In this document: in pieces, positions 11,895 to 26,344 of the stretch
Numbering within the stretch: position 1 is the first letter of the stretch
Layout of the letters: every line of letters starts with the position of its first letter
DNA from: a virus
Taxonomy: Duplodnaviria; Caudoviricetes
Virus record (IMG/VR): IMGVR_UViG_3300021963_000158
Location: 1 to 55,232 of that record
Reading direction: 5' to 3' (one strand)
Length of the DNA: 55,232 nt
Program-made: the position numbers and the translations under genes
The notes under the pieces: generated by a model
Database searches by the model: none
What the model was told of the DNA's origin: nothing
What the model saw: the letters and a program-made list of their open reading frames with translations, nothing else

Positions 11895-12086
11895 TTAAGC
11901 CGCTTTGGCTTCTTTACGTGAGTTCTTGGTTTCTGTGATCTCGTTACGACGAGCTTTAACTGCTTTACCAAGTTCTGCTAGTGCTTTGCGGGCACGAGTA
12001 CCAGCGGCGCTGTTACCTGCTTCAAATTTAGTGTGCTCTGCCGTGTAGGCTTCAATTGCTGTTTCGATATCTGTATGTGCTGACAT
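11895..12086 (-). CDS. histone H1-like Hc1 family nucleoid protein
   Basis: GNSAAGTRARKALAEL motif. Confidence 0.75.
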   Translation of the reverse strand: MSAHTDIETAIEAYTAEHTKFEAGNSAAGTRARKALAELGKAVKARRNEITETKNSRKEAKAA

Positions 12087-12107
12087 GTTGTTTCCTTTGT
12101 TGAAATT

Positions 12108-12197
12108 TGGCGGAACGACTGAGACTCGAACTCAGAAAGCGGCTTTCACCACTCGACGGATTAGCAATCCGCTCCAATACCATTATGGGACCGTTCC
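12108..12197 (-). tRNA. tRNA-Ser(GCT)
   Basis: class II cloverleaf, G73, CCA. Confidence 0.95.
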
Positions 12198-12206
12198 TTG
12201 CTTAGC

Positions 12207-12848: not shown

Positions 12849-13731
12849 ATAACTTTTTAATAGTCTGCTCGTAACCGTTAGGAATAAGCATATCCCTGGG
12901 CAAATTAATCTGATGATTTAAACTTGCTATGGCCAAACGTTGTGCTCGAGGTCTATGTTTAGGCACTACATTACCTAACAACACATCAACGCAGAAGTCA
13001 TGATGTATAACTGCATCCGGATGTGGATCATCGTGTACGTAATCCATATATTCTACTGTTGTTTGTTTCTTAACCTTGTATTCCCACATCCCCGAATAGG
13101 TAACAGGGTCTAGCGCATTGGTAGGTCTAAGATAAAACTTATCCCAATCAATTGCTGTCAGCAAATTTTGCATGGGTTTTAAACGCATTATGGCAGCGGC
13201 TGTAACTATATCATTTTTGTTTAATTTGGTTTTATCTGCCCAAATGCTTTTCCAACTTGGCTCAAACTGTGGACGTACATCGTACCAAGGATTTTGCCAA
13301 AACATCATATGATATTTACATCCAATTGTATCGAGCAATAGTTGCATTTGATAGATGATGTTGAAGTTATCAACAATCATATGCGTTAGGCTAACATCAT
13401 GCTCTGGATGCAGTCTATAAAGACCGCGCCATGGATCAGACCCATGTTCGAGGTGTTCGTTGTTGTTAGGGAAAAATCCACGACAATTGTTCTTTTCGAT
13501 CCAGTCATTGTCGTACCACGCACATACACGATTGTTGCCAGTGAGCATAATATACACAGTATCGTCTTTGGTGATACTGTTACGCCGACTCAATAATTCC
13601 CAATAGATAGTTTCATTGGCAATACCCGGCCAACCTAGATTAACAACAGGCTCTGCAGAATATTCTGCAAGCCAATCGCTCCATGTGTGCCAGAACCATT
13701 TAGTAAAACTACAACCGAGAGTGTATGTCAT
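12841..13731 (-). CDS. SGNH-hydrolase-like hypothetical protein
   Basis: LGCSFT, NLG..G..N, DPHP motifs. Confidence 0.55.
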   Translation of the reverse strand: MTYTLGCSFTKWFWHTWSDWLAEYSAEPVVNLGWPGIANETIYWELLSRRNSITKDDTVYIMLTGNNRVCAWYDNDWIEKNNCRGFFPNNNEHLEHGSDPWRGLYRLHPEHDVSLTHMIVDNFNIIYQMQLLLDTIGCKYHMMFWQNPWYDVRPQFEPSWKSIWADKTKLNKNDIVTAAAIMRLKPMQNLLTAIDWDKFYLRPTNALDPVTYSGMWEYKVKKQTTVEYMDYVHDDPHPDAVIHHDFCVDVLLGNVVPKHRPRAQRLAIASLNHQINLPRDMLIPNGYEQTIKKLYD

Positions 13732-13737
13732 TGAATT

Positions 13738-13822
13738 TGGTGCGGATGGTGAGACTCGAACTCACACACCTTTCGGCGACGGCTTCTAAGACCGTTGCGG
13801 CTACCAATTACGCCACATCCGC
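13738..13822 (-). tRNA. tRNA-Leu(TAG)
   Basis: class II cloverleaf, CCA. Confidence 0.95.
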
Positions 13823-13832
13823 ATGTACTTAC

Positions 13833-14128
13833 TTATAATATAAAAAGTTAGGCACTTAAAATCTGCTTTCCAACCGCGGACCAATATGCCCCCAAGTACG
13901 TCTCTCAGGAATGCCAACTATTCAAGTACTAACTGCCTGTAAGATGGCCTAAATGAATAGCTTGTTATCGGAATCTCAGGAGTTCATTGACTTTCAAAAT
14001 AACGGTGTCGCTTCGGGAATACCCGATATTCACAGAATTCTAGAGCGGCTTCTTACAAATGTCATTTACTATCCCTACCACTAGTATCAGATGGTTGTCG
14101 AACCAGTGCCTAACTTTTTATATTATAA
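13833..14128 (-). ncRNA. candidate structured ncRNA closed by a perfect 24-bp terminal helix
   Basis: inverted repeat 13833-13856/14105-14128; own promoter; internal hairpins; no credible ORF. Confidence 0.6.
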
Positions 14129-14136
14129 CAGTACGT

Positions 14137-14165
14137 AGTATATGTGAAATACCACGTACTGTCAA
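14137..14165 (-). promoter_or_regulatory. sigma70 promoter TTGACA-17-TATACT overlapped by an inverted repeat (ACAGTACGT...ACGTACTGT)
   Basis: motif match; predicted start site near 14130. Confidence 0.75.
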
Positions 14166-14168
14166 CCT

Positions 14169-14753
14169 CTACATTGTGGGACCATTGCCGTTTTTAAAAC
14201 CAACACTACCGCCTTCTGATTCGATGCGCTTGATAACGTCTTCAAATAAGATAGGTGCGTAGTCTGTGGTCTCTACACATACACAATGGTATCTAGGATC
14301 AACAACTGGAACACCATACTTACCAACTGGTTGCATCATCACTCGATTAGCATGCAAGTGTCCGTGAATGTTAACCCCAAATCGTCCCAGCGATTCTGTA
14401 TGAATTGGAATATGGCTCAAGATCATTCCGTTCATAACATGGTATGCACGTAATTCACGAAAGTGTTCTCTGTATTCCTCATCACGGAAGATGTCATGGT
14501 TGCCGCGGATCAACACCTTGTCACCGTTTAATCTTGACATGATTTTCAATGCTCGGCGGTTGATCACAACATCTCCCAAGTGGTAAACCTTGTCGTTGGG
14601 CCTAACACGTTCGTTCCAAGCCTTGACCATAAACTCATCCATCTCCTCTGCGTTGTCGAACGGGCGTAACTTGGTTACACCATCATTACGCATAAAATGG
14701 CAAACACCAGCATGTCCAAAATGTGTATCACTAACTAAAAAAACTGCTGGCAT
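14169..14753 (-). CDS. calcineurin-like metallophosphoesterase
   Basis: SDTHFGH, HLGD, GNHD, HGHLH; start revised to MPAVF. Confidence 0.9.
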   Translation of the reverse strand: MPAVFLVSDTHFGHAGVCHFMRNDGVTKLRPFDNAEEMDEFMVKAWNERVRPNDKVYHLGDVVINRRALKIMSRLNGDKVLIRGNHDIFRDEEYREHFRELRAYHVMNGMILSHIPIHTESLGRFGVNIHGHLHANRVMMQPVGKYGVPVVDPRYHCVCVETTDYAPILFEDVIKRIESEGGSVGFKNGNGPTM

Positions 14754-14763
14754 AATATACTCC

Positions 14764-15225
14764 TTATGTGTACCAGACTTCGTCAAACCCTTCTTCTTCG
14801 GTGGGCGTAACATAATCTTCGATCATTTTATCAACCACTGCTTGTGGTATTACTTTATCCATCCTTGAGGATAATCTCATGTTTAGTTCTTCTGCAGCGG
14901 GTGTTGGAAACACTACAGCAATTTTATGGTATCCGGGCAACATTACAAGTTTCTTTTTGCGACTAGCAACTGTGGTACTAGTTTGGTCCCAGATAATATC
15001 TCGGCCTTCATCTCGTGCAGCAATGACTTCTTCGACCATTAACTCAACTGCGGTAGGCATGTAATCATCAAATACTTCGATATACATTTTATCAACAGAT
15101 GCCGCATAAGCTTCAACTATTTGGTCTGTGCTAATGTATGCACACTCAGCGGCCCATTCTTGGTCGGCTACCCATGTGCTTTTTCCTGCGGCAGGAACTC
15201 CAACTAATACATATACTTTTGGCAT
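14764..15225 (-). CDS. polynucleotide 5'-kinase-like P-loop kinase
   Basis: GVPAAGKST, ISTD, IIWDQT...SR. Confidence 0.8.
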   Translation of the reverse strand: MPKVYVLVGVPAAGKSTWVADQEWAAECAYISTDQIVEAYAASVDKMYIEVFDDYMPTAVELMVEEVIAARDEGRDIIWDQTSTTVASRKKKLVMLPGYHKIAVVFPTPAAEELNMRLSSRMDKVIPQAVVDKMIEDYVTPTEEEGFDEVWYT

Positions 15226-15692
15226 TATTCTACACTCCTAAATGTGCGCCAATCATCAATGTTTGGCTTTTCGTTTTCATCATAGGTCCAATCCAAGACT
15301 CGCATCATGAGATGCTTGACCAGCAGATTGGGACTACGCCATCTTCCTACATCATCGAAGCCCATCATTACACCAACTTCGCAAACTGCACCACTACGAC
15401 AAATACCTGCAAAGCAATGAACAACAACATTCATTTGATTGTCCTTTGCATGCTGTAGCAAACGCACAAGCTCTACAGCTTGCTCGTAACTACATTTCAT
15501 TTCTTCTTCAAGTACTTCGTCGTGTTCTTCTACATCAAGGAATTCAAAGTTGTGAATTTCTTTAAATGTATGTGCGGGTGTTGGACGCCAACTTGCGGGA
15601 TCAACAATGCTGATCAGCATACTGTTGGGGCCGGCGTCATGATGAAATCTTTTCGGGATATCATCAGCGGCTACGTTTTCAATCCATGGCAT
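15225..15692 (-). CDS. tyrosine/dual-specificity phosphatase-like protein
   Basis: VHCFAGICRS (CX5R). Confidence 0.85.
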   Translation of the reverse strand: MPWIENVAADDIPKRFHHDAGPNSMLISIVDPASWRPTPAHTFKEIHNFEFLDVEEHDEVLEEEMKCSYEQAVELVRLLQHAKDNQMNVVVHCFAGICRSGAVCEVGVMMGFDDVGRWRSPNLLVKHLMMRVLDWTYDENEKPNIDDWRTFRSVE

Positions 15693-15712
15693 AATGATAC
15701 CTTTAAGTTAAA

Positions 15713-15788
15713 TGGAGCGGGAGGCGAGAGTCGAACTCGTCTATTTCTGCTTGGAAGGCAGACGTGTAACCAAAAACACTTCACCCGC
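15713..15788 (-). tRNA. tRNA-Gly(TCC)
   Basis: cloverleaf, U73, CCA; A8/U14. Confidence 0.92.
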
Positions 15789-15797
15789 AATATTGCT

Positions 15798-15826
15798 ATT
15801 GTAACACTTATTTAATTAAATGTCAA
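15798..15826 (-). promoter_or_regulatory. sigma70 promoter TTGACA-17-TACAAT
   Basis: motif match upstream of tRNA-Gly and the phosphatase/kinase block. Confidence 0.7.
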
Positions 15827-15835
15827 TGATTATTT

Positions 15836-15909
15836 TGGCGACCCCCCGGGGACTCGAACCCCGACTAACGGTTTTGGAGACCGCAGTACTGCCATTATAC
15901 TAGAGAGCC
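15836..15909 (-). tRNA. tRNA-Trp(CCA)
   Basis: cloverleaf, G73, CCA. Confidence 0.93.
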
Positions 15910-15933
15910 TAGAGCCTATATATAAATATAGTT

Positions 15934-16647
15934 ATGAAAAATTTCCATCGCTTCCAAGAATTTGCCAATCAAGAACTATTATGGAGTCCGGGTGATTCCG
16001 AAGAACTGTATTTAAATAATCTAAAAACTAATTACGATAAATTAAAAGATAATGGATGGATTAATCATTCGTTTACTTACAAATATAACAGTCACGGGTT
16101 TCGTTGCAACGAGTTTGATGCGTCACCCTCAATTGTTGCACTCGGATGCAGTAATACCATGGGTACCGGATTACCAATAGAACATACTTGGTCATACATT
16201 TTAGCAGAAAATTTAAATTTAACTTGTTTTAATCTAGGTGTCGGCGGTGGAGCAAATGATACTTCGTTTAGACTTGCATATATTTGGTTAGAACTAATTA
16301 AACCTAAAATTGTTGTATTATGGAATCCACACCCTGACCGAATTGAACTGTTAGATGAAACAAAAAATTATACATATCAACCGATCAACCCTGATATTAG
16401 GATGCCAGGTAGTGATTGGTATAAACACTGGGTTAGTACTAGTGATAATGGGGAATTAAACAAAATAAAAAATAGTTATGCTATTGCCCAATTATGCAAA
16501 AGACTTGGTATTAAATTTTTTTCTAAGGAACAAATCTTAACTGAAGATTTCCCTTATGTCCTCGGGAATGATCGTGCCCGTGATTTACTGCATTCCGGTA
16601 GTCAATCTAATCTAAATATAGCAAATTGTATTTTAGACTATTTGTAA
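15934..16647 (+). CDS. SGNH-like hypothetical protein on the strand opposite the tRNA array
   Basis: YNSHGFR, ALGCSNTMG, NLGVGG, ARDLLH; TATAAATA at 15921-15928. Confidence 0.75.
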   Translation: MKNFHRFQEFANQELLWSPGDSEELYLNNLKTNYDKLKDNGWINHSFTYKYNSHGFRCNEFDASPSIVALGCSNTMGTGLPIEHTWSYILAENLNLTCFNLGVGGGANDTSFRLAYIWLELIKPKIVVLWNPHPDRIELLDETKNYTYQPINPDIRMPGSDWYKHWVSTSDNGELNKIKNSYAIAQLCKRLGIKFFSKEQILTEDFPYVLGNDRARDLLHSGSQSNLNIANCILDYL

Positions 16648-16648
16648 A

Positions 16649-16724
16649 TGGTAGGACCTGCCAGGTTCGAACTGACGACATTCTGCGTGTAAGGCAGACG
16701 CTCTACCAACTGAGCTAAGGTCCT
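16649..16724 (-). tRNA. tRNA-Val(TAC)
   Basis: cloverleaf, CCA. Confidence 0.95.
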
Positions 16725-16729
16725 AAATT

Positions 16730-16805
16730 TGGAGCGGCTAACCGGGTTCGAACCGGTGACGTCTTGCTTGGCAAGCAAGTACTCTACCAACTGAGCTACA
16801 GCCGC
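16730..16805 (-). tRNA. tRNA-Gly(GCC)
   Basis: cloverleaf, CCA. Confidence 0.95.
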
Positions 16806-16810
16806 ATGTT

Positions 16811-18247
16811 TTATTTAACACAGAGGAATGTAACAAATCCCCGATCTGAGTTAATTATATCTGAAGTTGCAAATCCTGTCAACCTCAATTGTTTCAAATA
16901 CCATTCAACGGATACACTATGCATAACGCCTACCAGTTTTTGTTCTTTTTCTTTGATGTACTCTTCAGATAATCCCTGTTGTCGTTTAAAATCATAGTAG
17001 AGATTTTTAACTATGTTGGACTGTGTGGTTTTGTCTGACAGTATTAAATATCCACTGGGTGTTAAACTGCGGTATATATCCTGTAGGTACTGTGCCTTGT
17101 CTTTTACAAAATGTAATGTCCAATTGGCCAATACTAATTTGTATTTGTCTGCAGGAAAGGTATCGCTGTTAATAACACAGTTTGAATGTAAACTGTGCGC
17201 TATCATAGCAGAGCTATTATCTACACCAACTACGTCAGTGTATCCTGCATTGATAAATTTATCTATAGTAAATCCTAGCGCACTCCCAACATCAATGACT
17301 CGATCAGTTTTGTTGATATTCTCATTGGCAAAATCCAAACACCAATCTATAACATGATTGTATGATGGTATGTTTGCAACTGCTTCTTCTTGAAACCGTA
17401 CAGCCACAGTATCATCAAATACCCAAGCATTTTCTTGTTTAATAACTTGTACATTATCAACAACTGTTTGATGTAATGTAGTTAATGTTGTGGTTGTACG
17501 TTGATACCTTGCCATATAACGCAATGACGATGTTCTACCATTTTCGTACAAAGTATCTTTGGTGTTATAGGCATCATGTACACCTGTTATTAACTCAGGT
17601 AATAACAAAGGCTCTGTTCTTTGAAAAGAACAAGTTCCCATTATTAAATCTAATGCTGGTGTAGAAATCCTTGCCCTAACACCGTAATACGATTCTTCAA
17701 ATTTATTATCAGTGCCGGGATTGTTCATATACCCACGGCGGTCAATTAATATCTCACCAAAGTTATCATTGTAACTAAATGTTGGCCAGTTTAAATTGTC
17801 AAACACCACTGCTTCTTTGGTCACTAGATTGATTTTTTTAATAATAGATATAATATCAAGAAAGCAATAAATGACCCCGGATGCAACAACATAATCGTAC
17901 GTTTTGCCAACGGCAATTGCATTGTCTAAAAATTCTTCTATGTCTTGTTGTACAATTTTAAATTGATGTTGCACCCAATATCTAGACAATATACTGTTAC
18001 TATGTTCAACATAATAGTCTTGAATTTCAACTCCGGTATACTCCCTGGCACCATGTGTTAACGCATAATGCCCTGCGGCACCCAGGCAACTTCCTAGATC
18101 TAACACAGATCGGCCTGCAATCAATTCTGCAGGCAACTGTACTTGCAGTCTCTTGTACAAAGATTCTGCTGTTACTATGGCAAATGTTGGGCGAAGCCTA
18201 CGTGGATCCATACTAATAAACTCAGTATGCTCGTTGAAAATGTTCAT
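16811..18247 (-). CDS. two-domain SAM-dependent methyltransferase with CmoA-like C-terminal domain
   Basis: N-terminal VLDLGSCLG; C-terminal WVFDDTVAVRF...IPSY, GVDNSSAMI, WTLHFV, YDFKRQQGLSE; start revised to MNIFNE behind TATAAATA. Confidence 0.8.
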   Translation of the reverse strand: MNIFNEHTEFISMDPRRLRPTFAIVTAESLYKRLQVQLPAELIAGRSVLDLGSCLGAAGHYALTHGAREYTGVEIQDYYVEHSNSILSRYWVQHQFKIVQQDIEEFLDNAIAVGKTYDYVVASGVIYCFLDIISIIKKINLVTKEAVVFDNLNWPTFSYNDNFGEILIDRRGYMNNPGTDNKFEESYYGVRARISTPALDLIMGTCSFQRTEPLLLPELITGVHDAYNTKDTLYENGRTSSLRYMARYQRTTTTLTTLHQTVVDNVQVIKQENAWVFDDTVAVRFQEEAVANIPSYNHVIDWCLDFANENINKTDRVIDVGSALGFTIDKFINAGYTDVVGVDNSSAMIAHSLHSNCVINSDTFPADKYKLVLANWTLHFVKDKAQYLQDIYRSLTPSGYLILSDKTTQSNIVKNLYYDFKRQQGLSEEYIKEKEQKLVGVMHSVSVEWYLKQLRLTGFATSDIINSDRGFVTFLCVK

Positions 18248-18260
18248 ACGGTATTTATAG

Positions 18261-18352
18261 TGGCGGAAGGCAGAAGAGTCGAACTCCATCCCATTTCTGA
18301 GAACCTGGTTTTCAAGGCCAGTCGCAGGACCATCCCCGCTGCATTACCTTCC
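18261..18352 (-). tRNA. tRNA-Ser(TGA), 8/4 acceptor/T-stem variant
   Basis: 8-bp acceptor GGAAGGTA/TGCCTTCC, 4-bp T-stem, long variable arm, G73. Confidence 0.85.
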
Positions 18353-18357
18353 TTATT

Positions 18358-18421
18358 TGGTGCAACCCCCAGGGATCGAACCTGGTTCAATGGCTCTTCA
18401 GACCACATCAGCTAGAGTTGC
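18358..18421 (-). pseudogene. tRNA-Phe(GAA) lacking the D-arm (64 nt)
   Basis: acceptor, anticodon and T arms intact; only 8 nt between acceptor and anticodon stems. Confidence 0.75.
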
Positions 18422-18423
18422 AT

Positions 18424-18498
18424 TGGTCCGGCCTACAGGAATCGAACCCATATTCACGGTGTAGAAGACCGCTGTATTATCCATTATACTAAGGCCGG
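18424..18498 (-). tRNA. tRNA-Arg(TCT)
   Basis: cloverleaf, CCA. Confidence 0.92.
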
Positions 18499-18504
18499 CT
18501 AAAT

Positions 18505-18578
18505 TGGTGCCCCTACACAGAATCGAACTGCAAACTACGGATTACAAAACCGTCGTTATACCATTTAACTATAAGGGC
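18505..18578 (-). tRNA. tRNA-Thr(TGT)
   Basis: cloverleaf, CCA. Confidence 0.92.
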
Positions 18579-18584
18579 AATATC

Positions 18585-18658
18585 TGGCACCCGGAGTAGG
18601 AATCGAACCTACAATAGCAGAGTCAAAGTCTGTTGTGTTACCACTACACTATCCGGGA
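18585..18658 (-). tRNA. tRNA-Gln(TTG)
   Basis: cloverleaf, G73, CCA. Confidence 0.93.
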
Positions 18659-18666
18659 TTAAATTT

Positions 18667-18742
18667 TGGTGGTGATAGAGAGATTCGAACTCCCGACAGT
18701 CTCCGTATGAAGGAGGTGTTCTACCAACTGAACTACATCACC
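18667..18742 (-). tRNA. tRNA-Met(CAT), elongator type
   Basis: cloverleaf, CCA. Confidence 0.88.
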
Positions 18743-18744
18743 AG

Positions 18745-18820
18745 TGGGGTAACCAATGGGTAACGATCCCATACTACCAGTTTCACAGACTAGGGTGCAA
18801 ACCTCTACACTATGGTCACC
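18745..18820 (-). tRNA. tRNA-His(GTG)
   Basis: G-1:C73; atypical T-loop ATCGTTA. Confidence 0.88.
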
Positions 18821-19338
18821 ATATCTTTAAATTCTACGCACTTGGGGCACTTCCCGCAGTCAGAGTCTGTTATACACCAACTAACCAACGGCTGGATATT
18901 TTTAGGAATTAAACTCCACTGTTCGGTCTTGGATAGATGATCCAAGGGATGATTGAATGCAACTGCGGGATGCATTGTCGCCCATACTGCCATCATTTCT
19001 TCAATGAAAGGTTTTATATTTCCACTTGGTTCTGCGCTGTTACGTCCACACCAAATTTCTGTAACACTAGAATCTCTGGCCACCCAAAGACTAGCAACAA
19101 ATATAAAATATCTCATCTGATGCACAAACTCACCACCACCGGCAGGTATAGACAAGGTGCTGTACTGTACCTGCTTGTTAAATGCTTGTGCTATTTTTTC
19201 TGCTTTAATGCTGTTAGGCGACAATATTGCGCCAGGATAGACGTGATCAATGTTTAAAAGAATATCTGCGTCTCGAGCAATAGTCAGCATAGCTGTACTT
19301 TCTACGCCGCCGCTGAATAAAATTAAAGCCTTAGACAT
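18805..19338 (-). CDS. QueC-like PP-loop ATPase (7-cyano-7-deazaguanine synthase-like)
   Basis: ALILFSGGVEST, PLDHLSK, SWC...CGKCPKC. Confidence 0.75.
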   Translation of the reverse strand: MSKALILFSGGVESTAMLTIARDADILLNIDHVYPGAILSPNSIKAEKIAQAFNKQVQYSTLSIPAGGGEFVHQMRYFIFVASLWVARDSSVTEIWCGRNSAEPSGNIKPFIEEMMAVWATMHPAVAFNHPLDHLSKTEQWSLIPKNIQPLVSWCITDSDCGKCPKCVEFKDMVTIV

Positions 19339-19394
19339 TGTTATTCCTTATTGTACTAAATATTTTTGTGAGAACCTATCAAAATCTTACCCCA

Positions 19395-19532
19395 ATGGGA
19401 CTTAACTTTCAATTAAGTTTAAGCAATGACGGTGTCTGTTGTATCCTAGTATACGACATTTACAACTGCGAAGCAACCATGCGGTACTTTACCAATGTAA
19501 ACAAGGCACTTAGGTTTATTAATAATCTTTGA
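19395..19532 (+). CDS. small hypothetical protein (MGLNFQLSLS...)
   Basis: short ORF; TAAATA upstream. Confidence 0.45.
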   Translation: MGLNFQLSLSNDGVCCILVYDIYNCEATMRYFTNVNKALRFINNL

Positions 19533-19533
19533 A

Positions 19534-19719
19534 TTATGCTCGAACGTCAACAGTTCGAGGTTTGACTGTGGGATCTAATTCGCCCATTTTGTTGTACAAG
19601 TATTGCACAACTTCTATAACTTTCTTTTGCGAAACAGGATCAACTAGAGTTTTGTACTCTATGTTACGGAATTGGTTATAAACCATATCCCAATTGTTTG
19701 CTATGCTTTGTACTATCAT
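19534..19719 (-). CDS. small hypothetical protein
   Basis: ORF directly behind ATAAATA. Confidence 0.6.
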   Translation of the reverse strand: MIVQSIANNWDMVYNQFRNIEYKTLVDPVSQKKVIEVVQYLYNKMGELDPTVKPRTVDVRA

Positions 19720-19732
19720 ATAGTATTTATTT

Positions 19733-19808
19733 TACCATACAAAAACACACCACTTTCTCTTTATATGCCACGGACGCCACGTGTACGGTGATGTGTTTTT
19801 GTATGGTA
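19733..19808 (-). repeat. 17-bp perfect inverted repeat that includes the ACCA end of tRNA-Lys
   Basis: arms 19733-19749 and 19792-19808. Confidence 0.8.
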
Positions 19809-19877
19809 GGGGTGCTCGGGAACGATCCGAGTTTTACTGGTTAAAAGCCAGTTACTTCACCTTAAAGTTTCACCCCC
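19804..19877 (-). tRNA. tRNA-Lys(TTT), atypical
   Basis: all stems pair; A8/U14; T-loop ATCGTTC. Confidence 0.85.
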
Positions 19878-19906
19878 GCTATCTTATCACTCTTGTCACT
19901 TGTCAT
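19862..19906 (-). CDS. 14-codon mini-ORF MTSDKSDKIAGVKL reading into tRNA-Lys
   Basis: strong SD AAAGGAG 7 nt upstream of the ATG. Confidence 0.5.
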   Translation of the reverse strand: MTSDKSDKIAGVKL

Positions 19907-19928
19907 GACAGATCTCCTTTAAAAAATT

Positions 19929-20003
19929 TGGTACCCGGAGCAAGATTTGAACTTGCGGCCAACGCCTTATCAAGGCGCTGCTCTACCACTGAGCTACCCG
20001 GGT
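19929..20003 (-). tRNA. tRNA-Ile(GAT)
   Basis: cloverleaf, CCA. Confidence 0.94.
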
Positions 20004-20007
20004 GCAT

Positions 20008-20084
20008 TGGTCGGCCCTGAGAGACTCGAACTCCCAACCTCTAGTTTCGAAGACTAGCACTCTAATCCATTGAGTTAAGGACCG
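20008..20084 (-). tRNA. tRNA-Arg(TCG)
   Basis: cloverleaf, CCA. Confidence 0.93.
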
Positions 20085-20149
20085 TAAAATTGTTGCCGGG
20101 TAGGTGCTCCGGCGCCGAATCGTCTTGATATTATCTCACGGCCCTTGTT

Positions 20150-20234
20150 TGGTGGAGATGATAGGGATCGAACCTATCGTGACCGAAGTCGGAGGAGTTA
20201 CAGTCCCCTGCCACACCATTGCGGCGGCATCTCC
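20150..20234 (-). tRNA. tRNA-Tyr(GTA)
   Basis: class II cloverleaf; C at position 8. Confidence 0.92.
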
Positions 20235-20239
20235 ATGTG

Positions 20240-20314
20240 TGGTACTCGATAGCGGAGTCGAACCGCTCTTGCCTGGATGAAAACCAGATGTCCTAACCGA
20301 TAGACGAATCGAGC
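20240..20314 (-). tRNA. tRNA-Glu(TTC)
   Basis: cloverleaf, CCA. Confidence 0.94.
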
Positions 20315-20324
20315 AAAATACTTG

Positions 20325-20397
20325 TGGAAGTGACAGGGATCGAACCTGCGACCTACTGGTTGCAAACCAGTCGCTCTCCCAATTGAGCTACACCCCC
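20325..20397 (-). tRNA. tRNA-Ala(TGC), CCA not encoded (CAA follows)
   Basis: G3:U70, cloverleaf. Confidence 0.93.
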
Positions 20398-20403
20398 ATA
20401 AAC

Positions 20404-20479
20404 TGGCTCCCCAACGTGGGCTCGAACCACGGACCAACAGATTAACAGTCTGCTACTCTACCGACTGAGCTATTGGGGA
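20404..20479 (-). tRNA. tRNA-Asn(GTT)
   Basis: cloverleaf, CCA. Confidence 0.95.
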
Positions 20480-20490
20480 ATACACAAAAT

Positions 20491-20660
20491 TGGTTGGCTG
20501 TGCTCTGCACATTTAATCGTTCCTGCTTGACGTTTTGCTTTCGCGTGTCTTGCGTTTTAAACGAACCATAATTAATCGTTGCCTCACCTAAGTGCCCTAG
20601 TTCCTCTAGGGCTTTACCGCTGTTCCTCAGCGGACCTAAATGCTGTTTACTTCAGCAACC
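20491..20660 (-). ncRNA. candidate ~170-nt structured RNA with AGGAA-loop hairpins
   Basis: terminal helix GGTTGCTG/CAGCCAACC; two hairpins with AGGAA loops; lies between tRNA-Asp and tRNA-Asn. Confidence 0.55.
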
Positions 20661-20665
20661 GTATT

Positions 20666-20740
20666 TGGCGGTCTGTGGGGGAATCGAACCCCCGTAAGTG
20701 GATAGACAATCCACAGTAATAACCTCTATACGAACAGACC
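20666..20740 (-). tRNA. tRNA-Asp(GTC)
   Basis: cloverleaf, G73, CCA; U37. Confidence 0.92.
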
Positions 20741-20748
20741 AAAATCTA

Positions 20749-21013
20749 CTATTTTAAAAAGTACTATAGGGAGGATATAAACTCAGCACCACCTGTTAGT
20801 TTACATTTTTTCTCATTACAGCCCACTGTTTATTCTGTCGCATTCCCGGAAGATGTTCCCTATTTCAACCGCTCGTTGCCTTTGGTATAGGCTCAGGTAT
20901 CTATTTCGGGCTTCCTGCTTCATGGGTATCAAGGCCGTGTACCGAAGTACTTCTGAAACACCTTTTCGTTCACCCCTAACAGAGTAGGTAACCTATAATA
21001 CGTTTTAAAATAG
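20749..21013 (-). ncRNA. candidate ~265-nt structured RNA closed by a ~22-bp terminal helix
   Basis: CTATTTTAAAACGTATTATAGG / CCTATAGTACTTTTTAAAATAG; internal UUCG hairpin; CTGTTAG/CTAACAG pairing. Confidence 0.55.
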
Positions 21014-21058
21014 CAACCCCTGCGGGTTACTTAAAACAACAACTTTTTAAAGAACATT

Positions 21059-21226
21059 TAGTTAATTTCCTAACTAGCTTCTAGTATAGCACTTTTGCCT
21101 TTATGGCACAACCTTTTTATGTGTTGTATTTTTGCTACACCGTCCGCTAGTTAATTTCCTAACTAGTCTCTATTGTATAGCAGATGCCTTTATTGGACAA
21201 CCATTATTTTGTTGTATTTTTACAAC
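21059..21226 (-). promoter_or_regulatory. tandem duplicated promoter cassettes (TTGTCC-17-TACAAT; TTGTGC-17-TATACT)
   Basis: 89-bp period; 19-bp direct repeat at 21059-21077 and 21148-21166; upstream GTTGTATTTTT boxes. Confidence 0.7.
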
Positions 21227-21231
21227 ATATA

Positions 21232-21309
21232 TGGAAGTGCGGGTCGGATTTGAACCGACGGTTTTGCGGATTTGCAATCCACTGCATTGGGCCACTCTGC
21301 CACCGCACT
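21232..21309 (-). tRNA. tRNA-Cys(GCA)
   Basis: cloverleaf, U73, CCA. Confidence 0.93.
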
Positions 21310-21315
21310 ATATTA

Positions 21316-21566
21316 TGGTACTCCTTGGTTCCTAGGTGATGCCCGGCCTGCCGTGGGCGCCTTTCCTTGGCGCTCGGCATGTTCATCCTCGGAGTATTCT
21401 AAAGCATACGTGGTTATATGCTTTAGAATACCCTGTGCTGACACAGGATATGATAGGGTTGATGCCCTACCCAGGAGTCTATTGTTCCACATATGGAACT
21501 CCATGTATCCTGTCCGCCCGTTTAGCTTGTTTAATGTGTTGCCTGGGACCTCGTTTCCCATTCCAC
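21316..21566 (-). ncRNA. candidate structured RNA domains between attenuator terminator and tRNA-Cys
   Basis: multiple GC-rich nested stems separated by a 14-bp AT-rich hairpin (21395-21430). Confidence 0.45.
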
Positions 21567-21568
21567 AT

Positions 21569-21603
21569 AACAAAAAACCCTAGGGTTTTTAGTCCTAGGG
21601 TCC
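21569..21603 (-). terminator. intrinsic terminator (putative attenuator)
   Basis: GGACCCTAGG-ACTAAAAAC-CCTAGGGTTT plus TTTGTT. Confidence 0.85.
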
Positions 21604-21628
21604 TTGAAGTTTGTTGTGAACTTGTGTG

Positions 21629-21769
21629 TTACACTACCATCTCCTGGACCCTAGATTTTTCTGAACCACGATCATTACTAAACATCGGTGCACAGATCGT
21701 TGACCAATAGGCTAACAAGCCTGTTGTGGGCAACGTATGCTGTGTGGATTGTTTAATAATTTGCGTCAT
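21629..21769 (-). CDS. putative attenuator leader peptide, 46 aa, containing all 20 amino acids
   Basis: MTQIIKQSTQHTLPTTGLLAYWSTICAPMFSNDRGSEKSRVQEMVV; ATG at predicted start site; anti-terminator segment within codons 39-42. Confidence 0.7.
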   Translation of the reverse strand: MTQIIKQSTQHTLPTTGLLAYWSTICAPMFSNDRGSEKSRVQEMVV

Positions 21770-21775
21770 GTCCGT

Positions 21776-21804
21776 ATTATAACTTCTTTTTTGTTTCTTG
21801 TCAA
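21776..21804 (-). promoter_or_regulatory. consensus sigma70 promoter TTGACA-17-TATAAT
   Basis: perfect consensus; 6 nt to ATG. Confidence 0.85.
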
Positions 21805-21869
21805 CGCTTTTGGGCGTTAACATAAAAATATTTATTTTGTTGCTACCACCATTGATAGCAATTTCATGT

Positions 21870-21898
21870 ATTGTAGTTTATTTAGCATTTGTTGTCAA
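21870..21898 (-). promoter_or_regulatory. sigma70 promoter TTGACA-17-TACAAT
   Basis: motif match; second promoter upstream of the leader. Confidence 0.65.
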
Positions 21899-21935
21899 CC
21901 ACGGTGTTAAATGGGGTAATTGTAGTGCTTTTGTA

Positions 21936-23201
21936 TTAAGCTTCTGTTACGTTGTGCTTCTTAAACTCGTTAACTAACCAAGGAAACACCTCACGCCAAT
22001 TTGTATTACGTCTACGATCCATTTCAGTTAAAAAGTCGTGCATTTTTTGTATTTGATCAACTCTTGGTCCTGTGCTAGCTGATTGCTGTGCTATGCCACG
22101 CAGGTAATCTTTGTTTGAAATTTGTTCAGGAAATTCAGTGGGCTTTAATGCCAATGCACGATCAAAATCTTCGGCAAATATGTCTCCAAAAATGTCAATG
22201 AAGAACGGGCTAGGCCCATTTACTGAATTTTGATAATGGTATACCGGACGCACAGAATTCCACTCATTGATTTTTATCAATAGTTCAGGCAAGGTTTTGA
22301 TAGTTAACGGAGTCACTGTAGAACTAATAATCAACTTAATCCAACGTTGTGACACTAGATAGTTAAAGTTTTCTTCCCATACTTTTAAGTCCAGAGGGAA
22401 TCTTACATATTCCTGTGCGGCTCCCCAACAATCTAAACTAGCAGTAATGTCCAACCCAGCAATTTTTTTACGTGCCACTAAATTACGTATACGTGTGACT
22501 ATTTTTTGTAAGTGTGGCAGTTTGGCGTTTAAGTTGGTAATGATCTGCAACTTTAAATTAGGTGCAGGATAATTTTCAAATAAATCCAAGCATTGTTCTA
22601 ATTCTGGCTGGAACAACGGTTCGCCGCCCAGGATATTAAAATTTGTTAACTTACTTCCATTATCTTTGAGCCAATCAAAAATTTTAACTTTGTTTGCTTC
22701 TATATGCGAGCTTTTTTGAAACTCATCAGAAATACGTAGGTCGCCTTTAGTAAAATACCCATGACGTTTGTTTTCTGCATCCCATAAAGAACTAAATGTG
22801 GGTCCGCAGTAAACACATTTTAAATTACAAGTATTGTCGAAATAAATTTCAAGAATCCTAGGAGTCACTGTTGTTGCAGTGGGATCTATATCTAATTCTA
22901 CCGGGGCATGAATGCCTGGAAAATTATTATTAGTGATTCTATCGCTTTGGCCGCCGGCTGTCTCAATGTCACGGCAATAGTTGCAACCAATTGTGGGCCA
23001 TTGCCCATCGAGCATGCGTTCTCTATCGTTAATCTTTGTGGGAGTATTGTGAAAATTGAAACTGCTAGTGTCGAACGTATGTTTATTCGTTCTATGACAA
23101 CTAGCAGTTTCATCTGTGGTCAGGAACAAAGTGCTCCATGTCCACTTTAATTGGCAAGCAGTTTCCGTTTTAATCGGGAATACTTTTTGCGGTAATGACA
23201 T
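21936..23201 (-). CDS. radical SAM protein with N-terminal SPASM/twitch-like domain
   Basis: CNLKCVYC, GGEP, N-terminal C..KW...SCH...CNYC. Confidence 0.9.
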   Translation of the reverse strand: MSLPQKVFPIKTETACQLKWTWSTLFLTTDETASCHRTNKHTFDTSSFNFHNTPTKINDRERMLDGQWPTIGCNYCRDIETAGGQSDRITNNNFPGIHAPVELDIDPTATTVTPRILEIYFDNTCNLKCVYCGPTFSSLWDAENKRHGYFTKGDLRISDEFQKSSHIEANKVKIFDWLKDNGSKLTNFNILGGEPLFQPELEQCLDLFENYPAPNLKLQIITNLNAKLPHLQKIVTRIRNLVARKKIAGLDITASLDCWGAAQEYVRFPLDLKVWEENFNYLVSQRWIKLIISSTVTPLTIKTLPELLIKINEWNSVRPVYHYQNSVNGPSPFFIDIFGDIFAEDFDRALALKPTEFPEQISNKDYLRGIAQQSASTGPRVDQIQKMHDFLTEMDRRRNTNWREVFPWLVNEFKKHNVTEA

Positions 23202-24100
23202 TACACAGTAACTGGGGTGTACTCAATGCCGGTGGTAGCAAGACCAACAAGACCGATTGCAGTTTCGAATGTGGCCAACTCGCTGGCAATAACCAATACG
23301 TCTGCTTGACTATATTTGTTACCATTCATCCAATTTGTCAATGCTGTTACATCATCTAATGTAGCAGTTGTGCCGGTTACATTCTTGTAAACATGTTTGA
23401 TGAATGTTTCATCGCTGACACCGCCGGCATCAGTTTTGTAAGTGTCAGTGGCCAATAATGCTTCTGCCAATTGTTTGTTAGTCCAACCTGCGTCAGCAAG
23501 GTGGATGCCAATGCCTGTGTAGGCCTTGGTAACGTCGGCTGTGCCAAGAGCGGCCGCTAACAATGCATACACATCACCTGCACGACCTGCGGCATCATAA
23601 GCAACGGCCTTGTCTGTGAATACTACACGTTCGTGGTCAGCAAGATTGAATTCCATGTTGCTGACTAATGTGCTGGCTAAGTTTACTTTGTCGGCAGTTT
23701 TAGTTGTTGTGTACTCAGTACTAGCACCACCCATGGTGTAAGTGTCGATACCAGCAGTACCGGTAACGTCAACTTGAATATCAACTGTGCCATCGCCGAC
23801 ACGGCCTGTACCTACTACACCGAATGTAGCAATCTTACCTGCTGTGCCAACTGTGGCCACAGTAACAATCAAGTTATTAAGATTAGTACCACCCAGGGCT
23901 GTACCAGCAAGAGTAATTGTGTCACCTGCAACATAACCTGTGCCTGCACTCGCCGCTAATGAATCGAGAACAACAGAATATGTTCCGTTGGTTTTTGTAA
24001 CATCAAATGTAGCACCGTCGCCACTTCCGCCTGTTAAGCCAGTAACATTTTGGTATGTAGTGTTAACTGCCTTGTCTTTGATTGTAATTGTAGTAGTCAT
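23201..24100 (-). CDS. Thr/Gly-rich beta-strand protein with C-terminal DUF4214/S-layer-like region
   Basis: GTGYVAGDTITLAG; SDETFIKHVYKNV...W...SQADVLVIASE. Confidence 0.55.
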   Translation of the reverse strand: MTTTITIKDKAVNTTYQNVTGLTGGSGDGATFDVTKTNGTYSVVLDSLAASAGTGYVAGDTITLAGTALGGTNLNNLIVTVATVGTAGKIATFGVVGTGRVGDGTVDIQVDVTGTAGIDTYTMGGASTEYTTTKTADKVNLASTLVSNMEFNLADHERVVFTDKAVAYDAAGRAGDVYALLAAALGTADVTKAYTGIGIHLADAGWTNKQLAEALLATDTYKTDAGGVSDETFIKHVYKNVTGTTATLDDVTALTNWMNGNKYSQADVLVIASELATFETAIGLVGLATTGIEYTPVTV

Positions 24101-24183
24101 TGAATTTTCCTTATGTTGAATAATGATTAAGTATATAGTAGTTTCACTAAGAAGTCAAAAATAAATTTAACCATTTTAAATGG

Positions 24184-24269
24184 TGGTAGAACGGGTGGGA
24201 TTTGAACCCACAATGTCTTTCGAACTGGATTATGAGTCCAGGGCCTGCAACCAATACGGCGTCCGTTCT
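24184..24269 (-). tRNA. tRNA with CAT anticodon and long variable arm (Ile2/Met, identity uncertain)
   Basis: AGAACGG/CCGTTCT acceptor, CTGGA-CTCATAA-TCCAG, 13-nt variable region, A73, CCA. Confidence 0.85.
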
Positions 24270-24927
24270 ATTTAAAACTTTTACCATGTTGACGATTTTG
24301 ATTATACTCATCAACATACTTTTTCCAAAGCATACACAATCTAGGTTGGGTAGTATTGTTAGCTTCGGCAAAGGCACATATTGAATTATACTTTGATTCT
24401 TTAAATTTGTCAAATAGTTTGTTAGCCAATATTTTTGCTTCTTCTTTTTTGCGACCATAAGCGGCCTTTTTGTAATCAAATTCAGGATCTTTGATTGGTT
24501 TATCAAAATTTACTATTCTACCTTTTTGCCAACCAGTAGGAATGGTTTCTGTTTTACTAATTTTTTTATTTTCCTTAAGAGACTTATTACAAATCCACAT
24601 CGATCCGAATTGAGTGTTTCCTGTTCCTGTTTGCCGAATCGACATAGAGGCCGAAAGTCTTCTTTTCAACCATCCGTAGAGTTTATTTGAAGGTCTACTG
24701 GGAATCATCATAACAGCAGCATTAATTAACTTATGACTTGATGGATAAATTTTAACCAGTAATTGGTGCGCTACATAATGCTCTTCGGGGGTTAGACGCA
24801 CAAGATTTTCTATAGAATCAGATCCGCCCATGCACCTAGGTATAACATGATGCAACTCCGTATAACCGTCTATGTTACGATTTTTTGCTTTTTCTATTAA
24901 TCTAGAATAGTGTAACTCATAATTCAT
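24268..24927 (-). CDS. HNH homing endonuclease
   Basis: HHVIPRCMGGSD...NLVRLTPEEHYVAH. Confidence 0.9.
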   Translation of the reverse strand: MNYELHYSRLIEKAKNRNIDGYTELHHVIPRCMGGSDSIENLVRLTPEEHYVAHQLLVKIYPSSHKLINAAVMMIPSRPSNKLYGWLKRRLSASMSIRQTGTGNTQFGSMWICNKSLKENKKISKTETIPTGWQKGRIVNFDKPIKDPEFDYKKAAYGRKKEEAKILANKLFDKFKESKYNSICAFAEANNTTQPRLCMLWKKYVDEYNQNRQHGKSFK

Positions 24928-24951
24928 ACTTTATTTATATGAATTATGAGT
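24915..24951 (-). promoter_or_regulatory. 14-bp hairpin enclosing a TATAAATA late promoter and sequestering the HNH start codon
   Basis: ACTCATAATTCATA / TATGAATTATGAGT perfect inverted repeat. Confidence 0.75.
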
Positions 24952-24961
24952 AATTTAGCTG

Positions 24962-26344
24962 TCAAGCAGGACGGAAGTCAAACACGTATTTTTGGTTAAT
25001 ACCGGATGCGTAGTAGCTCTTACCTGCTACGAGTACAATAGTACCCTGAAAGTTTGGCGGATATACTGCGTTGAATCCGGTAATAGCAACATCTTCGCCA
25101 TTGGCTCGAGCACTGGTATACATCTGCATCATACTAGCGTAGTTTAGAAATTCAATACATCCATTGCTAAAGTCTGGTGTTGAGTTTACACGTTCTGCCA
25201 CAGCGGCGGCCACGGCACTCATAACCCAATAACCATAATTCCATCCTTGTGCAGATTTCATCTTAAATGCATCAGTCCAAGGCTTGGTCCACTCTGGAGG
25301 ATTTTCGGTAGTGTGTGCTCTAATCATGCGAACAACGTCTTGTGCTTGTTCTTCTGTAATTAATTCAAAACTAATAGCTAGCTTCAACGGGCCATCAATC
25401 ATTGATGCTCCAGAAATAGTCTTAACAATGTTGGCCGCAATAGGATATTCTGCTTCTAAATCTTGATTAGCGGCTTTTGCATTAGCAATACCCTCAAGTA
25501 AATTCTTAACACTAGCAGGGGCACCTTTGCCGCCTTTACTACTAACACCCAAACTAAATTTACCAGAACGTAGATAAAAATCTACTAGTCCGTATGTTTT
25601 ACCACCCGGGAAGTGTATCTGAAGTTTATTCCATGGTGCATCTTTTAGAATTTGTTTTCTAGCATCGTCGGCTTCTCCGCCAACTATACCATAAGTCAAT
25701 GCAATACTTTGTAATACTTCGCCTAGATTATCACGTATGGCTTCGAGGTTGGCCTTTTCGCCTGTAAATACCGGAAGTTGTTTTTTACCCATCATTGCAA
25801 TACCTTCAATGATGTTAGGGGCAACTGTTGTTACGCCTTGTATATGTTGTAACATTGCCGCACCATTGGTAAATGTATCTGTGGCGCCCAACAAGTCTTG
25901 TGGTTTAAATCCTGCACGAGCTTTTTTACTTGCTTTGAGTTCGGGGCGCAGGCCAGGCAATTCATCGTTGTCCCATTTGTGCATCATACTGGGAAGAATC
26001 TCTTCAAAGTATTTGCCAAAGTATAAAGGTTTATTGTTTGGCCCAACAAACTGTGCAAGTGCAAACCCACGATGACGTGACGTTGGTTTATTTGCCCAGA
26101 CAATCGGGTTGCCTGCTTGTGCAACTGCCTGCTGATCAACATGTGCTACATCAGCGGTTAAAGAATCTGCATCCGGGTATTTGCCCACCGGGGGATAACT
26201 TTGTACACCCTGGAATTGGTAGGGGTCGCCTTGCGTGGCTTTAAATGTGTTACCCACAACTGCGGTAAATGGAGGATCGTTGGGACTACGTGCATAGATG
26301 CCGCGGCCTTCAAGTAAAGTAGTGATAACGTCAGAAATTTTCAT
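24962..26344 (-). CDS. hypothetical protein, putative internal virion protein
   Basis: MKISDVITTLLE N-terminus; ATAAATA upstream. Confidence 0.7.
   Translation of the reverse strand: MKISDVITTLLEGRGIYARSPNDPPFTAVVGNTFKATQGDPYQFQGVQSYPPVGKYPDADSLTADVAHVDQQAVAQAGNPIVWANKPTSRHRGFALAQFVGPNNKPLYFGKYFEEILPSMMHKWDNDELPGLRPELKASKKARAGFKPQDLLGATDTFTNGAAMLQHIQGVTTVAPNIIEGIAMMGKKQLPVFTGEKANLEAIRDNLGEVLQSIALTYGIVGGEADDARKQILKDAPWNKLQIHFPGGKTYGLVDFYLRSGKFSLGVSSKGGKGAPASVKNLLEGIANAKAANQDLEAEYPIAANIVKTISGASMIDGPLKLAISFELITEEQAQDVVRMIRAHTTENPPEWTKPWTDAFKMKSAQGWNYGYWVMSAVAAAVAERVNSTPDFSNGCIEFLNYASMMQMYTSARANGEDVAITGFNAVYPPNFQGTIVLVAGKSYYASGINQKYVFDFRPA

Follow-up and report, generated by a model that had tools for sequence, protein, structure and literature searches.

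Attenuators of amino-acid biosynthetic operons, such as trpL, hisL, thrL, leuL, the ilv leaders and pheL, typically combine a short translated leader, an intrinsic terminator and an antiterminator that shares a strand with the terminator, and the position of the ribosome on the leader decides between the two folds, with completed translation favouring termination. Known leader-peptide attenuators each watch one or a few amino acids. Attenuators of antibiotic-resistance genes that depend on ribosome stalling, for example the vmlR and mef/msr leaders (PMC9226507, PMC4335068), also carry a leader ORF with a terminator and an antiterminator and respond to slowed ribosomes in general, although they do so through a drug-bound ribosome at a particular arrest site and control resistance proteins. 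T-box riboswitches generally sense the charging state of one specific tRNA by binding it directly and need no translation, while in pyrBI and related coupling attenuators a closely following ribosome generally blocks the terminator hairpin directly, so that coupling turns expression on. A short ORF at the head of the tRNA cluster of a phage contig (IMG/VR record IMGVR_UViG_3300021963_000158, analysed over its 55,232 nucleotides and hereafter referred to as the window) uses all 20 amino acids just before a predicted transcription switch and was compared with these systems. No description of an all-amino-acid leader or of an attenuator before phage tRNA genes was found in a limited literature search.

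The leader differs from the trp, his, thr, leu and phe type in several respects. No codon occurs more than 3 times and there are no runs; instead each of the 20 amino acids appears, and relatives carry most rare residues once. The leader is about 3 times longer than trpL. The 5' hairpin (RNA nt 1-105) does not overlap the antiterminator (nt 116-175) and both coexist in the minimum free energy (MFE) fold, so that an untranslated leader should read through rather than super-attenuate. The regulated products are RNAs, a structured RNA and tRNAs, in a phage rather than biosynthetic enzymes, and many members are leaderless. With respect to the resistance-gene leaders, no arrest motif is evident here, composition rather than sequence is conserved and the target is a tRNA array. 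No T-box hit was obtained at E up to 1 in positions 10000-25000 of the window, nor at gathering score in 10 loci, and no other Rfam family matched the leader; one element here would cover all amino acids through the ribosome. With respect to pyrBI, the stop codon lies 25 nt before the terminator and a coupled ribosome should favour termination, so that coupling would turn expression off.

The sequence features noticed in the first-pass annotation were confirmed, all on the minus strand. A perfect promoter (TTGACA at 21804-21799, a 17-nt spacer and TATAAT at 21781-21776; 12 of 12 positions) is one of four perfect sites on this strand in 10500-25000, and its -10 hexamer ends 6 nt before an ATG at 21769, so the transcript would be leaderless. 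In 19 of the 49 units with a promoter match of at least 9 of 12, the -10 hexamer likewise ends 6-9 nt before the ATG. A distal sigma-70-type promoter (TTGACA-17-TACAAT, 21898-21870; 11 of 12), not noted in the first-pass annotation, and an in-frame ATG at 21823 lie upstream; the distal promoter is homologous to the only promoter of the L004 unit (L numbers denote loci), and an RNA contig of one metatranscriptome run (X15) reaches up to 21833, beyond the proximal promoter. A site at 21200-21172, listed in the first-pass annotation as an internal promoter, is only a 9 of 12 match.

The leader ORF (21769-21629, with the stop codon TAA at 21631-21629) has 46 codons, 34 of them different, and holds all 20 amino acids. 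For this ORF alone this is about a 1% event, as 211 of 21717 stop-free 46-residue windows of the contig (0.97%) hold all 20 amino acids; however, it is not chance, because homologous units recur in IMG/VR phage contigs. The first ~35 codons (21769-21665) form a long hairpin which may serve as a pause or synchronising hairpin. The whole leader folds at -68.3 kcal/mol (z -6.2), and for the head alone z is -3.9 in the window, with a median of -2.6 in 46 relatives and values below -2 in 29 of 46.

The 3' end of the ORF pairs with the 5' arm of an intrinsic terminator. In the predicted antiterminator hairpin (21654-21595; -26 kcal/mol, z -4.85), CUAGGGUCC (21654-21646) pairs with GGACCCUAG (21603-21595), and the pairing extends through GGAG (21644-21641) with CUUC (21609-21606), while the apical hairpin holds the stop codon. 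A tenth pair proposed in the first-pass annotation, T21655 with G21594, would be a wobble. The terminator (21603-21572) consists of GGACCCUAGG (21603-21594), a 9-nt loop and CCUAGGGUUU (21584-21575), forming a 10-bp stem with a run of six U (21577-21572); it starts 25 nt after the stop, folds at -16.1 kcal/mol and shares its first 9 nt with the antiterminator. The two folds are mutually exclusive, and the full-leader MFE of the window contains the antiterminator and not the terminator.

Directly downstream lies a conserved structured RNA (21567-21313), with a hairpin with loop AACGAGG, a hairpin with loop CACUAUAAAC, then AAACGGGCGG and further helices. It belongs to no Rfam family and would be the first product of read-through; RNAalifold recovered only its first hairpin. 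It is followed by a co-oriented array of tRNA genes (21309-11478), interspersed with protein genes and further promoters. The first-pass annotation described the array as covering all 20 amino acids; ARAGORN finds 24 tRNAs, 23 of them downstream, covering 19 amino acids, and no tRNA-Phe was found. Further near-consensus promoters inside the array mean that the attenuator can control only part of it.

Related units were searched for in IMG/VR with a pattern based on the downstream RNA. Of 130 pattern matches, 70 passed the motif filter and de-duplication, and 56 of these had a terminator within 280 nt. The remaining 14, in which a simple finder detected no such terminator and some of which are chance matches in GC-rich contigs, were left out of all counts. 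Each of the 56 had an ATG ORF ending 21-36 nt before the terminator; 46 of these ORFs are unique and 36 aa or longer (ORFs of this size end 21-33 nt before a conserved terminator), whereas ten are short (14-35 aa) and none of those holds all 20 amino acids. As all units were found through the downstream RNA, their linkage to that RNA is by construction. Of the 30 units with at least 3 kb of downstream sequence, 29 have 5-30 co-oriented tRNAs, starting 214-1626 nt after the terminator. A blastn search of the leader region against 50,697 phage records found no match. No host can be named.

All 20 amino acids are present in 32 of the 56 leader ORFs and 11 more hold 19. About 1.0 all-20 ORFs are expected with the leaders' own composition, 0.75 with the proteome composition of this phage and 3.45 with uniform composition; these expectations were computed for a harsher start rule which gives shorter peptides, and under that rule 24 of 56 still hold all 20. 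In comparison, 24 of 2615 other unique ATG ORFs of 38-53 aa in the same loci hold all 20, and at least 4 of those 24 are further leaders as judged by eye. Leader-like all-20 ORFs that turned up in this control are carried by at least two of the 14 excluded units (L088 and L151) and by L093 and L178, which did not reach the 70. The completeness is not simple inheritance. Median pairwise identity among the 32 is only 0.30, redrawing 60-70% of positions keeps all 20 in only 3.5-4% of trials, and 17 of 38 clusters at 60% identity contain an all-20 member. Among the 46 aligned leaders, Cys is present exactly once in 85% but in 22 different alignment columns, and His is present once in 83%, in 14 columns. 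Constraint on the ORF is of the coding type, with a pooled pN/pS of 0.50 over 18 close pairs, 0.37 in the head and 1.05 in the last 12 codons.

The alternative structures are also maintained in the relatives. In 55 of 56 units at least 4 nt of the terminator's 5' arm pair upstream, in 49 of the 56 all partners lie in the last 10 codons, where a ribosome at the end of the ORF would cover or unwind them, and the median energy z is -3.4. The terminator is absent from the full-leader MFE in 35 of 56 units, the window included. Cognate pairing of the ORF end with the terminator flank averages -19.8 kcal/mol, against -13.7 for non-cognate pairing, and none of 5000 permutations reached the cognate value, although the window's own cognate pairing is only mid-rank among relatives, as 21 of 54 non-cognate partners pair as well or better. 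On 28 of the 29 class-2 units (one near-duplicate, L161, was omitted), the antiterminator has 85.3% of cells paired and 12 double changes (1 of 500 shuffles), and the terminator has 98.9% paired and 7 double changes (0 of 500). The core helix GGGUCC with GGACCC hardly varies within the window's class, so covariation there rests on the flanking pairs.

Every computational test proposed in the first-pass annotation, which had inferred a pan-amino-acid translational attenuator, came out as predicted, and the most probable explanation, held with reasonable though not full confidence, is a ribosome-mediated transcription attenuator whose leader ORF has been selected to contain every amino acid, so that it reports the overall speed of translation rather than the supply of one amino acid. 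Host RNA polymerase would start at a near-consensus promoter, in this window at or next to the AUG. By default, the RNA would fold into the antiterminator hairpin, which encloses the stop codon and takes up the first 6-9 nt of the terminator's 5' arm, so that transcription runs on into the structured RNA and the tRNA array. A ribosome that keeps pace with the polymerase and reaches the last ~8 codons would unwind the 5' strand of the antiterminator, allowing the terminator to form, whereas a delay at any earlier codon, possibly from starvation, tRNA shortage or tRNA damage, would leave the antiterminator intact and turn the tRNA array on. Translation of the leader, the direction of the switch, the kinetic race between ribosome and polymerase and the physiological trigger are inferred from sequence and not from experiment.

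The placement of the residues supports this reading only under one of two assumptions about the ribosome. If a stall is counted as sensed while at least 4 of the 6 core pairs stay closed, taking the ribosomal helicase to act at about +11 from the P site, 27 of 46 heads already hold all 20 amino acids, against 0.28 expected. With a more conservative footprint (15 nt ahead of the A site), no head of the 46 holds all 20, and D, E, R and V are mostly supplied by the unsensed tail; the less conservative boundary was chosen after that result. In this window Val lies only in the unsensed tail under both boundaries, as the first-pass annotation had itself noted. Leader codons match the phage's own anticodons no better than other phage genes do (0.76 against 0.74 decodable in 17 loci). 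Contigs from four lake metatranscriptome runs of four studies cover the leader and bridge the terminator, and short high-depth contigs end at 21576/21577, in the U-run; this is only a weak hint; such contigs cannot show strand, true ends or the absence of DNA.

It appears somewhat more likely than not that these units represent a widespread class of phage regulators in which a ribosome races the RNA polymerase over a track of roughly 40 codons containing each of the 20 amino acids, so that slowing at any one codon, whether from starvation, codon-demand mismatch or host tRNA-cleaving defences, switches on the phage's own tRNA array and an undescribed ornate RNA. This would be the first general sensor of the whole tRNA or amino-acid pool built from a leader peptide and a new design principle for sensing translational capacity. 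It would also explain how large phages time and dose their tRNA arrays, which is an open question, and offers a route by which a phage could respond to tRNA-cleaving host defences. The family gives an unusually clean signature of selection on composition rather than sequence, which can be searched for elsewhere.

Among the alternatives, the one that survives best, although it is unlikely, is a translation-coupled attenuator that senses ribosome availability or transcription-translation coupling in general, for example host shut-off or ribosome-targeting defences, and not the tRNA or amino-acid pool, with amino-acid completeness serving some other end or being a side effect. The same architecture fits this view, the default fold gives read-through so that any loss of translation would induce, and leader codons are not tuned to phage anticodons. 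However, it does not explain why all 20 amino acids are kept at 30% identity with single Cys and His residues moving between positions; a coupling sensor needs no particular composition.

It is less likely still that the ORF encodes a small protein acting in trans, with the terminator simply ending its gene and the hairpin stabilising or processing the mRNA. The pN/pS value below 1 in the head and some conserved positions, such as a Trp in column 29 and an Asp in column 53, are compatible with this possibility, and a protein database search with the leader found only two near-identical ORFs, called in public data without a name. On the other hand, completeness with wandering singletons is not how folded or binding peptides evolve, the hairpin overlaps the terminator arm and covaries with it, the stop-to-terminator distance is fixed at 21-33 nt for the ORFs of 36 aa or more, and no Pfam domain is on record for the hits.

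A non-coding small RNA of about 200 nt, in which the ORF is incidental, is very doubtful. The leader RNA is very structured, the ORF head folds into a long hairpin in most relatives and a terminated fragment may accumulate, for which the RNA evidence is weak. Nevertheless, the ORF stays open at 38-53 codons across sequences of 30% identity, there is an excess of synonymous change in the head, the amino-acid composition is non-random and the -10 hexamer is placed for a 5'-terminal AUG in 19 units.

A RiPP pair, in which the ORF would be the precursor peptide of the radical-SAM enzyme encoded just upstream (21936-23201, ending about 170 nt before the leader's ATG), is disfavoured by synteny, as only 8 of 56 loci hold any homologue of that enzyme, only the window and its near-twin L001 have it within 300 nt although many loci offer 5-13 kb of upstream sequence, and sixteen closer relatives of the enzyme (L002-L016) have no tRNAs nearby. 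A tblastn search of the phage records with the radical-SAM protein found one distant Ralstonia jumbo phage.

The features of interest all lie on the minus strand and begin with a perfect sigma-70-type promoter (TTGACA at 21804-21799, a spacer of 17 nt and TATAAT at 21781-21776), which ends 6 nt before an ATG at 21769. The ORF runs for 46 codons to a TAA at 21631-21629, uses 34 different codons and contains all 20 amino acids. An intrinsic terminator starts 25 nt after the stop, with GGACCCUAGG (21603-21594) as its 5' arm, a loop of 9 nt and CCUAGGGUUU (21584-21575) as its 3' arm, followed by six U at 21577-21572, and it folds at -16.1 kcal/mol. A second promoter (TTGACA-17-TACAAT, 21898-21870) and an in-frame ATG at 21823 lie further upstream. 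The 55 kb contig carries a 1117-aa tail sheath, a large terminase, a GroEL-like chaperonin and a radical-SAM protein and is therefore a fragment of a large myovirus. A total of 24 tRNA genes were identified with ARAGORN, of which 23 are downstream of the leader and co-oriented with it; they cover 19 amino acids, and no tRNA-Phe was found anywhere in the window. A tRNA-Sec-like hit at 18265-18352 (-), which scores below the gathering score (33.7 bits against 47) and is not called by ARAGORN, may represent an unusual long-arm tRNA.

The 201-nt leader RNA folds at -68.3 kcal/mol (z -6.2; none of 200 shuffles folds as well) into three parts, namely a long hairpin made of codons 1-35 (nt 1-105), a hairpin at nt 116-175 and a small residual hairpin. 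In the second hairpin, CUAGGGUCC (21654-21646) pairs with GGACCCUAG (21603-21595) and GGAG (21644-21641) pairs with CUUC (21609-21606), while an apical hairpin holds the stop codon. This hairpin takes 9 of the 10 nucleotides of the 5' arm of the terminator, so that the two structures exclude each other. Alone it folds at -26 kcal/mol (z -4.85), and it is the one present in the full-length minimum-energy fold; an untranslated leader should therefore read through.

For the single ORF, all 20 amino acids occur in 211 of 21717 (0.97%) stop-free 46-residue windows of this contig and in 2-3% of random 46-mers with the composition of this phage or of the leaders, and on its own the observation would be a curiosity. 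A search with the neighbouring radical-SAM protein retrieved 80 IMG/VR loci. One of these, locus L001, is 98.8% identical over the leader, with two changes in the ORF, both of which are non-synonymous. The identity of 98.8% extends from the end of the radical-SAM gene through the leader (L001 4854-6855 against window 21200-23201), whereas the radical-SAM protein of L001 is only 76% identical, which marks a mosaic junction near the 3' end of the gene. Two other loci, L004 and L062, carry recognisable but diverged units whose ORFs also hold all 20 amino acids.

Downstream of the terminator, all of them share a structured RNA (21313-21567 (-) in the window; also L004 12346-12500, L062 15785-16100 and, in a further locus, L082 3314-3480). 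It has a hairpin with a covarying stem and the invariant loop AACGAGG, a second hairpin with loop CACUAUAAAC, then AAACGGGCGG and further long-range helices. No Rfam 15 family matches it, and RNAalifold on 31 sequences finds 11-12 double changes per pair in the first hairpin; it looks like an undescribed phage RNA family at the head of tRNA arrays. After filtering and de-duplication 70 units were obtained, of which 56 had a terminator within 280 nt upstream as judged by a simple finder, and the other 14 were excluded from all counts. In the 56 units the terminator is of one conserved type, GGACCCUAGG-AUUAAAAAC-CCUGGGG-U6, with varying stems. It lies about 20-36 nt before the RNA in some units and about 190-230 nt before it in others, in which a small ORF of about 54 aa with a good Shine-Dalgarno site (MKK...EHTLS...) intervenes (L004 12160-12324; loci L082, L083 and many others); this ORF is absent from the window. 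Every one of the 56 units has an ATG ORF ending 21-36 nt before the terminator stem.

The amino-acid completeness of these ORFs was examined next. Of the 56 ORFs, 32 hold all 20 amino acids, 11 hold 19 and 5 hold 18. Monte Carlo simulation gives about 1.0 all-20 ORFs with the pooled composition of the leaders themselves, 0.75 with the proteome composition of the window and 3.45 with a perfectly uniform composition, although these expectations were computed for a harsher start rule, which takes the shortest in-frame ATG leaving at least 36 residues and hence gives shorter peptides; under that rule, 24 of 56 remain complete. As an empirical control, 24 of 2615 (0.9%) other unique ATG ORFs of 38-53 aa in the same loci are complete, and at least four of those 24 are further leaders missed by the terminator finder. 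The 10 ORFs shorter than 36 aa are never complete, and five of them form a subfamily of about 27-33 aa with 14-18 different residues.

Completeness is not explained by descent. Among the 32 complete leaders the median pairwise identity is 0.30, and the leader of the window is 0.20-0.42 identical to all but its twin. If 60-70% of the positions of the window's peptide are redrawn at random, completeness survives in 3.5-4% of trials. At 60% identity the leaders fall into 38 clusters, of which 17 contain a complete member. In an alignment of the 46 unique leaders of at least 36 aa, Cys occurs exactly once in 85% of the peptides but in 22 different columns and His occurs once in 83%, in 14 columns, while Trp (once in 93%) and one Asp are mostly positionally conserved. 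A residue kept at one copy while it moves about is what selection on presence, not position, predicts.

Indirect evidence bearing on translation of the leader was obtained from substitution patterns and promoter geometry. Over 18 close pairs, which are not independent, the pooled pN/pS is 0.50, with 0.37 in the head and 1.05 in the last 12 codons, where RNA pairing also constrains synonymous sites. Near-consensus promoters (at least 9 of 12) precede 49 of 56 units. In 19 of these, from several subfamilies and including the window, the -10 hexamer ends 6-9 nt before the ATG, which is the geometry of a leaderless mRNA, while the other 30 have 10-80 nt of leader and 13 of them show a Shine-Dalgarno-like motif.

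To assess the alternative structure in relatives, the nascent RNA was folded up to the terminator loop. In 55 of 56 units at least 4 nt of the 5' arm pair upstream, and in 49 of the 56 all partners lie in the last 10 codons; the median energy z against shuffles is -3.4, and in 35 of 56 units the terminator is absent from the full-length minimum-energy fold. Two architectures occur, a long continuous hairpin with the stop codon in its 5' strand and a three-part hairpin with the stop codon in the apical hairpin, the latter being the form found in the window. Pairing the ORF end of each unit with its own terminator flank gives -19.8 kcal/mol on average, against -13.7 with the flanks of other units; none of 5000 permutations reached the cognate value and 38 of 56 cognates rank in the best tenth, although the window's own pair is only mid-rank because it relies on the conserved core. 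On a MAFFT alignment of 28 class-2 units, the antiterminator has 85.3% of cells paired, against 56% and 65% when slid by one column, with 12 double changes (1 of 500 shuffles), and the terminator has 98.9% paired, with 7 double changes (0 of 500). The core GGGUCC with GGACCC is almost invariant there and is uninformative either way. In L062, on inspection of the sequence, the same GGGUC sits in a different reading frame, which points to an RNA-level constraint.

The placement of the residues along the leader depends on the boundary chosen. Under a conservative rule, in which a stall is sensed only if the A site is more than 15 nt before the pairing strand, no head of the 46 is complete and D, E, R and V are mostly supplied by the tail, which argues against the simple model. 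A second rule was based on the position at which the ribosome probably unwinds mRNA, about +11 from the P site, and required that 4 of the 6 core pairs stay closed. Under this rule 27 of 46 heads are complete, against 0.28 expected; however, the second boundary was chosen after the first result had been seen, so that the point remains tentative. Under the second rule, the head of the window has 19 amino acids and lacks Val.

RNA data provide only a weak hint that both terminated and read-through RNAs exist. Runs containing the stretch are mostly lake and freshwater metagenomes, and six are metatranscriptomes. Contigs of four RNA runs from four studies cover 21472/21510 to 21734/21833 and span the leader, the terminator and the start of the downstream RNA, though contigs cannot show strand, true ends or freedom from DNA. 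Several short, deeper contigs of close relatives have their own ends at 21576/21577, the first U of the U-run. In four RNA runs the bin 21576-21636 is 10-70 times deeper than its neighbours, the depth coming mostly from short contigs of related phages that share the conserved terminator and end in the U-run.

The mechanism inferred here is that polymerase starts at the strong promoter and a ribosome loads on the AUG. If the ribosome keeps pace, it enters the last ~8 codons and opens the antiterminator just as the 3' arm of the terminator emerges, and transcription then ends at 21572-21577; if it is delayed at any earlier codon, the antiterminator forms first and the polymerase continues into the structured RNA and the tRNAs. 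The long 5' hairpin, present in most relatives (median z -2.6; below -2 in 29 of 46), may pause the polymerase until translation begins, as the 1:2 hairpin does in trp, although this role is speculative. The reach of such a switch is limited by further promoters inside the array. Three more perfect TTGACA-17-TATAAT promoters lie on the same strand in and around the array (12211-12239, 16854-16882 and 24385-24413 (-)), the one at 24413-24385 preceding the lone upstream tRNA-Met, along with 11 of 12 sites at 15798-15826 and 14137-14165.

The element conforms to the structural definition of a leader-peptide attenuator but lacks the codon runs and the competing 1:2 hairpin of the amino-acid-specific class. 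It matches no Rfam family, nothing similar was found in a limited literature search, and the leader has only two unnamed near-identical entries among 5.8 billion proteins. That it senses the whole amino-acid or tRNA pool is well supported by comparative evidence, though untested at the bench.

In 29 of the 30 units with at least 3 kb of downstream sequence, 5-30 co-oriented tRNA genes follow, starting 214-1626 nt after the terminator and covering 18-20 amino acids where the array is complete; the exception, the unit L156, looks like a chance match. Leader codons are no better matched to the anticodons of the phage than other phage genes are. A homologue of the radical-SAM gene is present in only 8 of 56 loci and is adjacent only in the window and L001, which makes it very unlikely that the leader ORF is a RiPP precursor. 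Protein genes are interspersed in the tRNA array of the window (16811-18289 (-), 18805-19338 (-), 14169-14813 (-) and 15225-15692 (-)) and include a methyltransferase matching a phage 'tRNA methyltransferase' family, a QueC-like protein, a metallophosphatase and a dual-specificity-phosphatase-like protein. A GOLLD RNA (RF02032, 190.8 bits) lies at the far end of the tRNA array led by one of these units (locus L125, 1-458 (-)), and a permuted tmRNA hit lies about 12 kb upstream of the unit in another locus (L107, 12798-12977 (-)).
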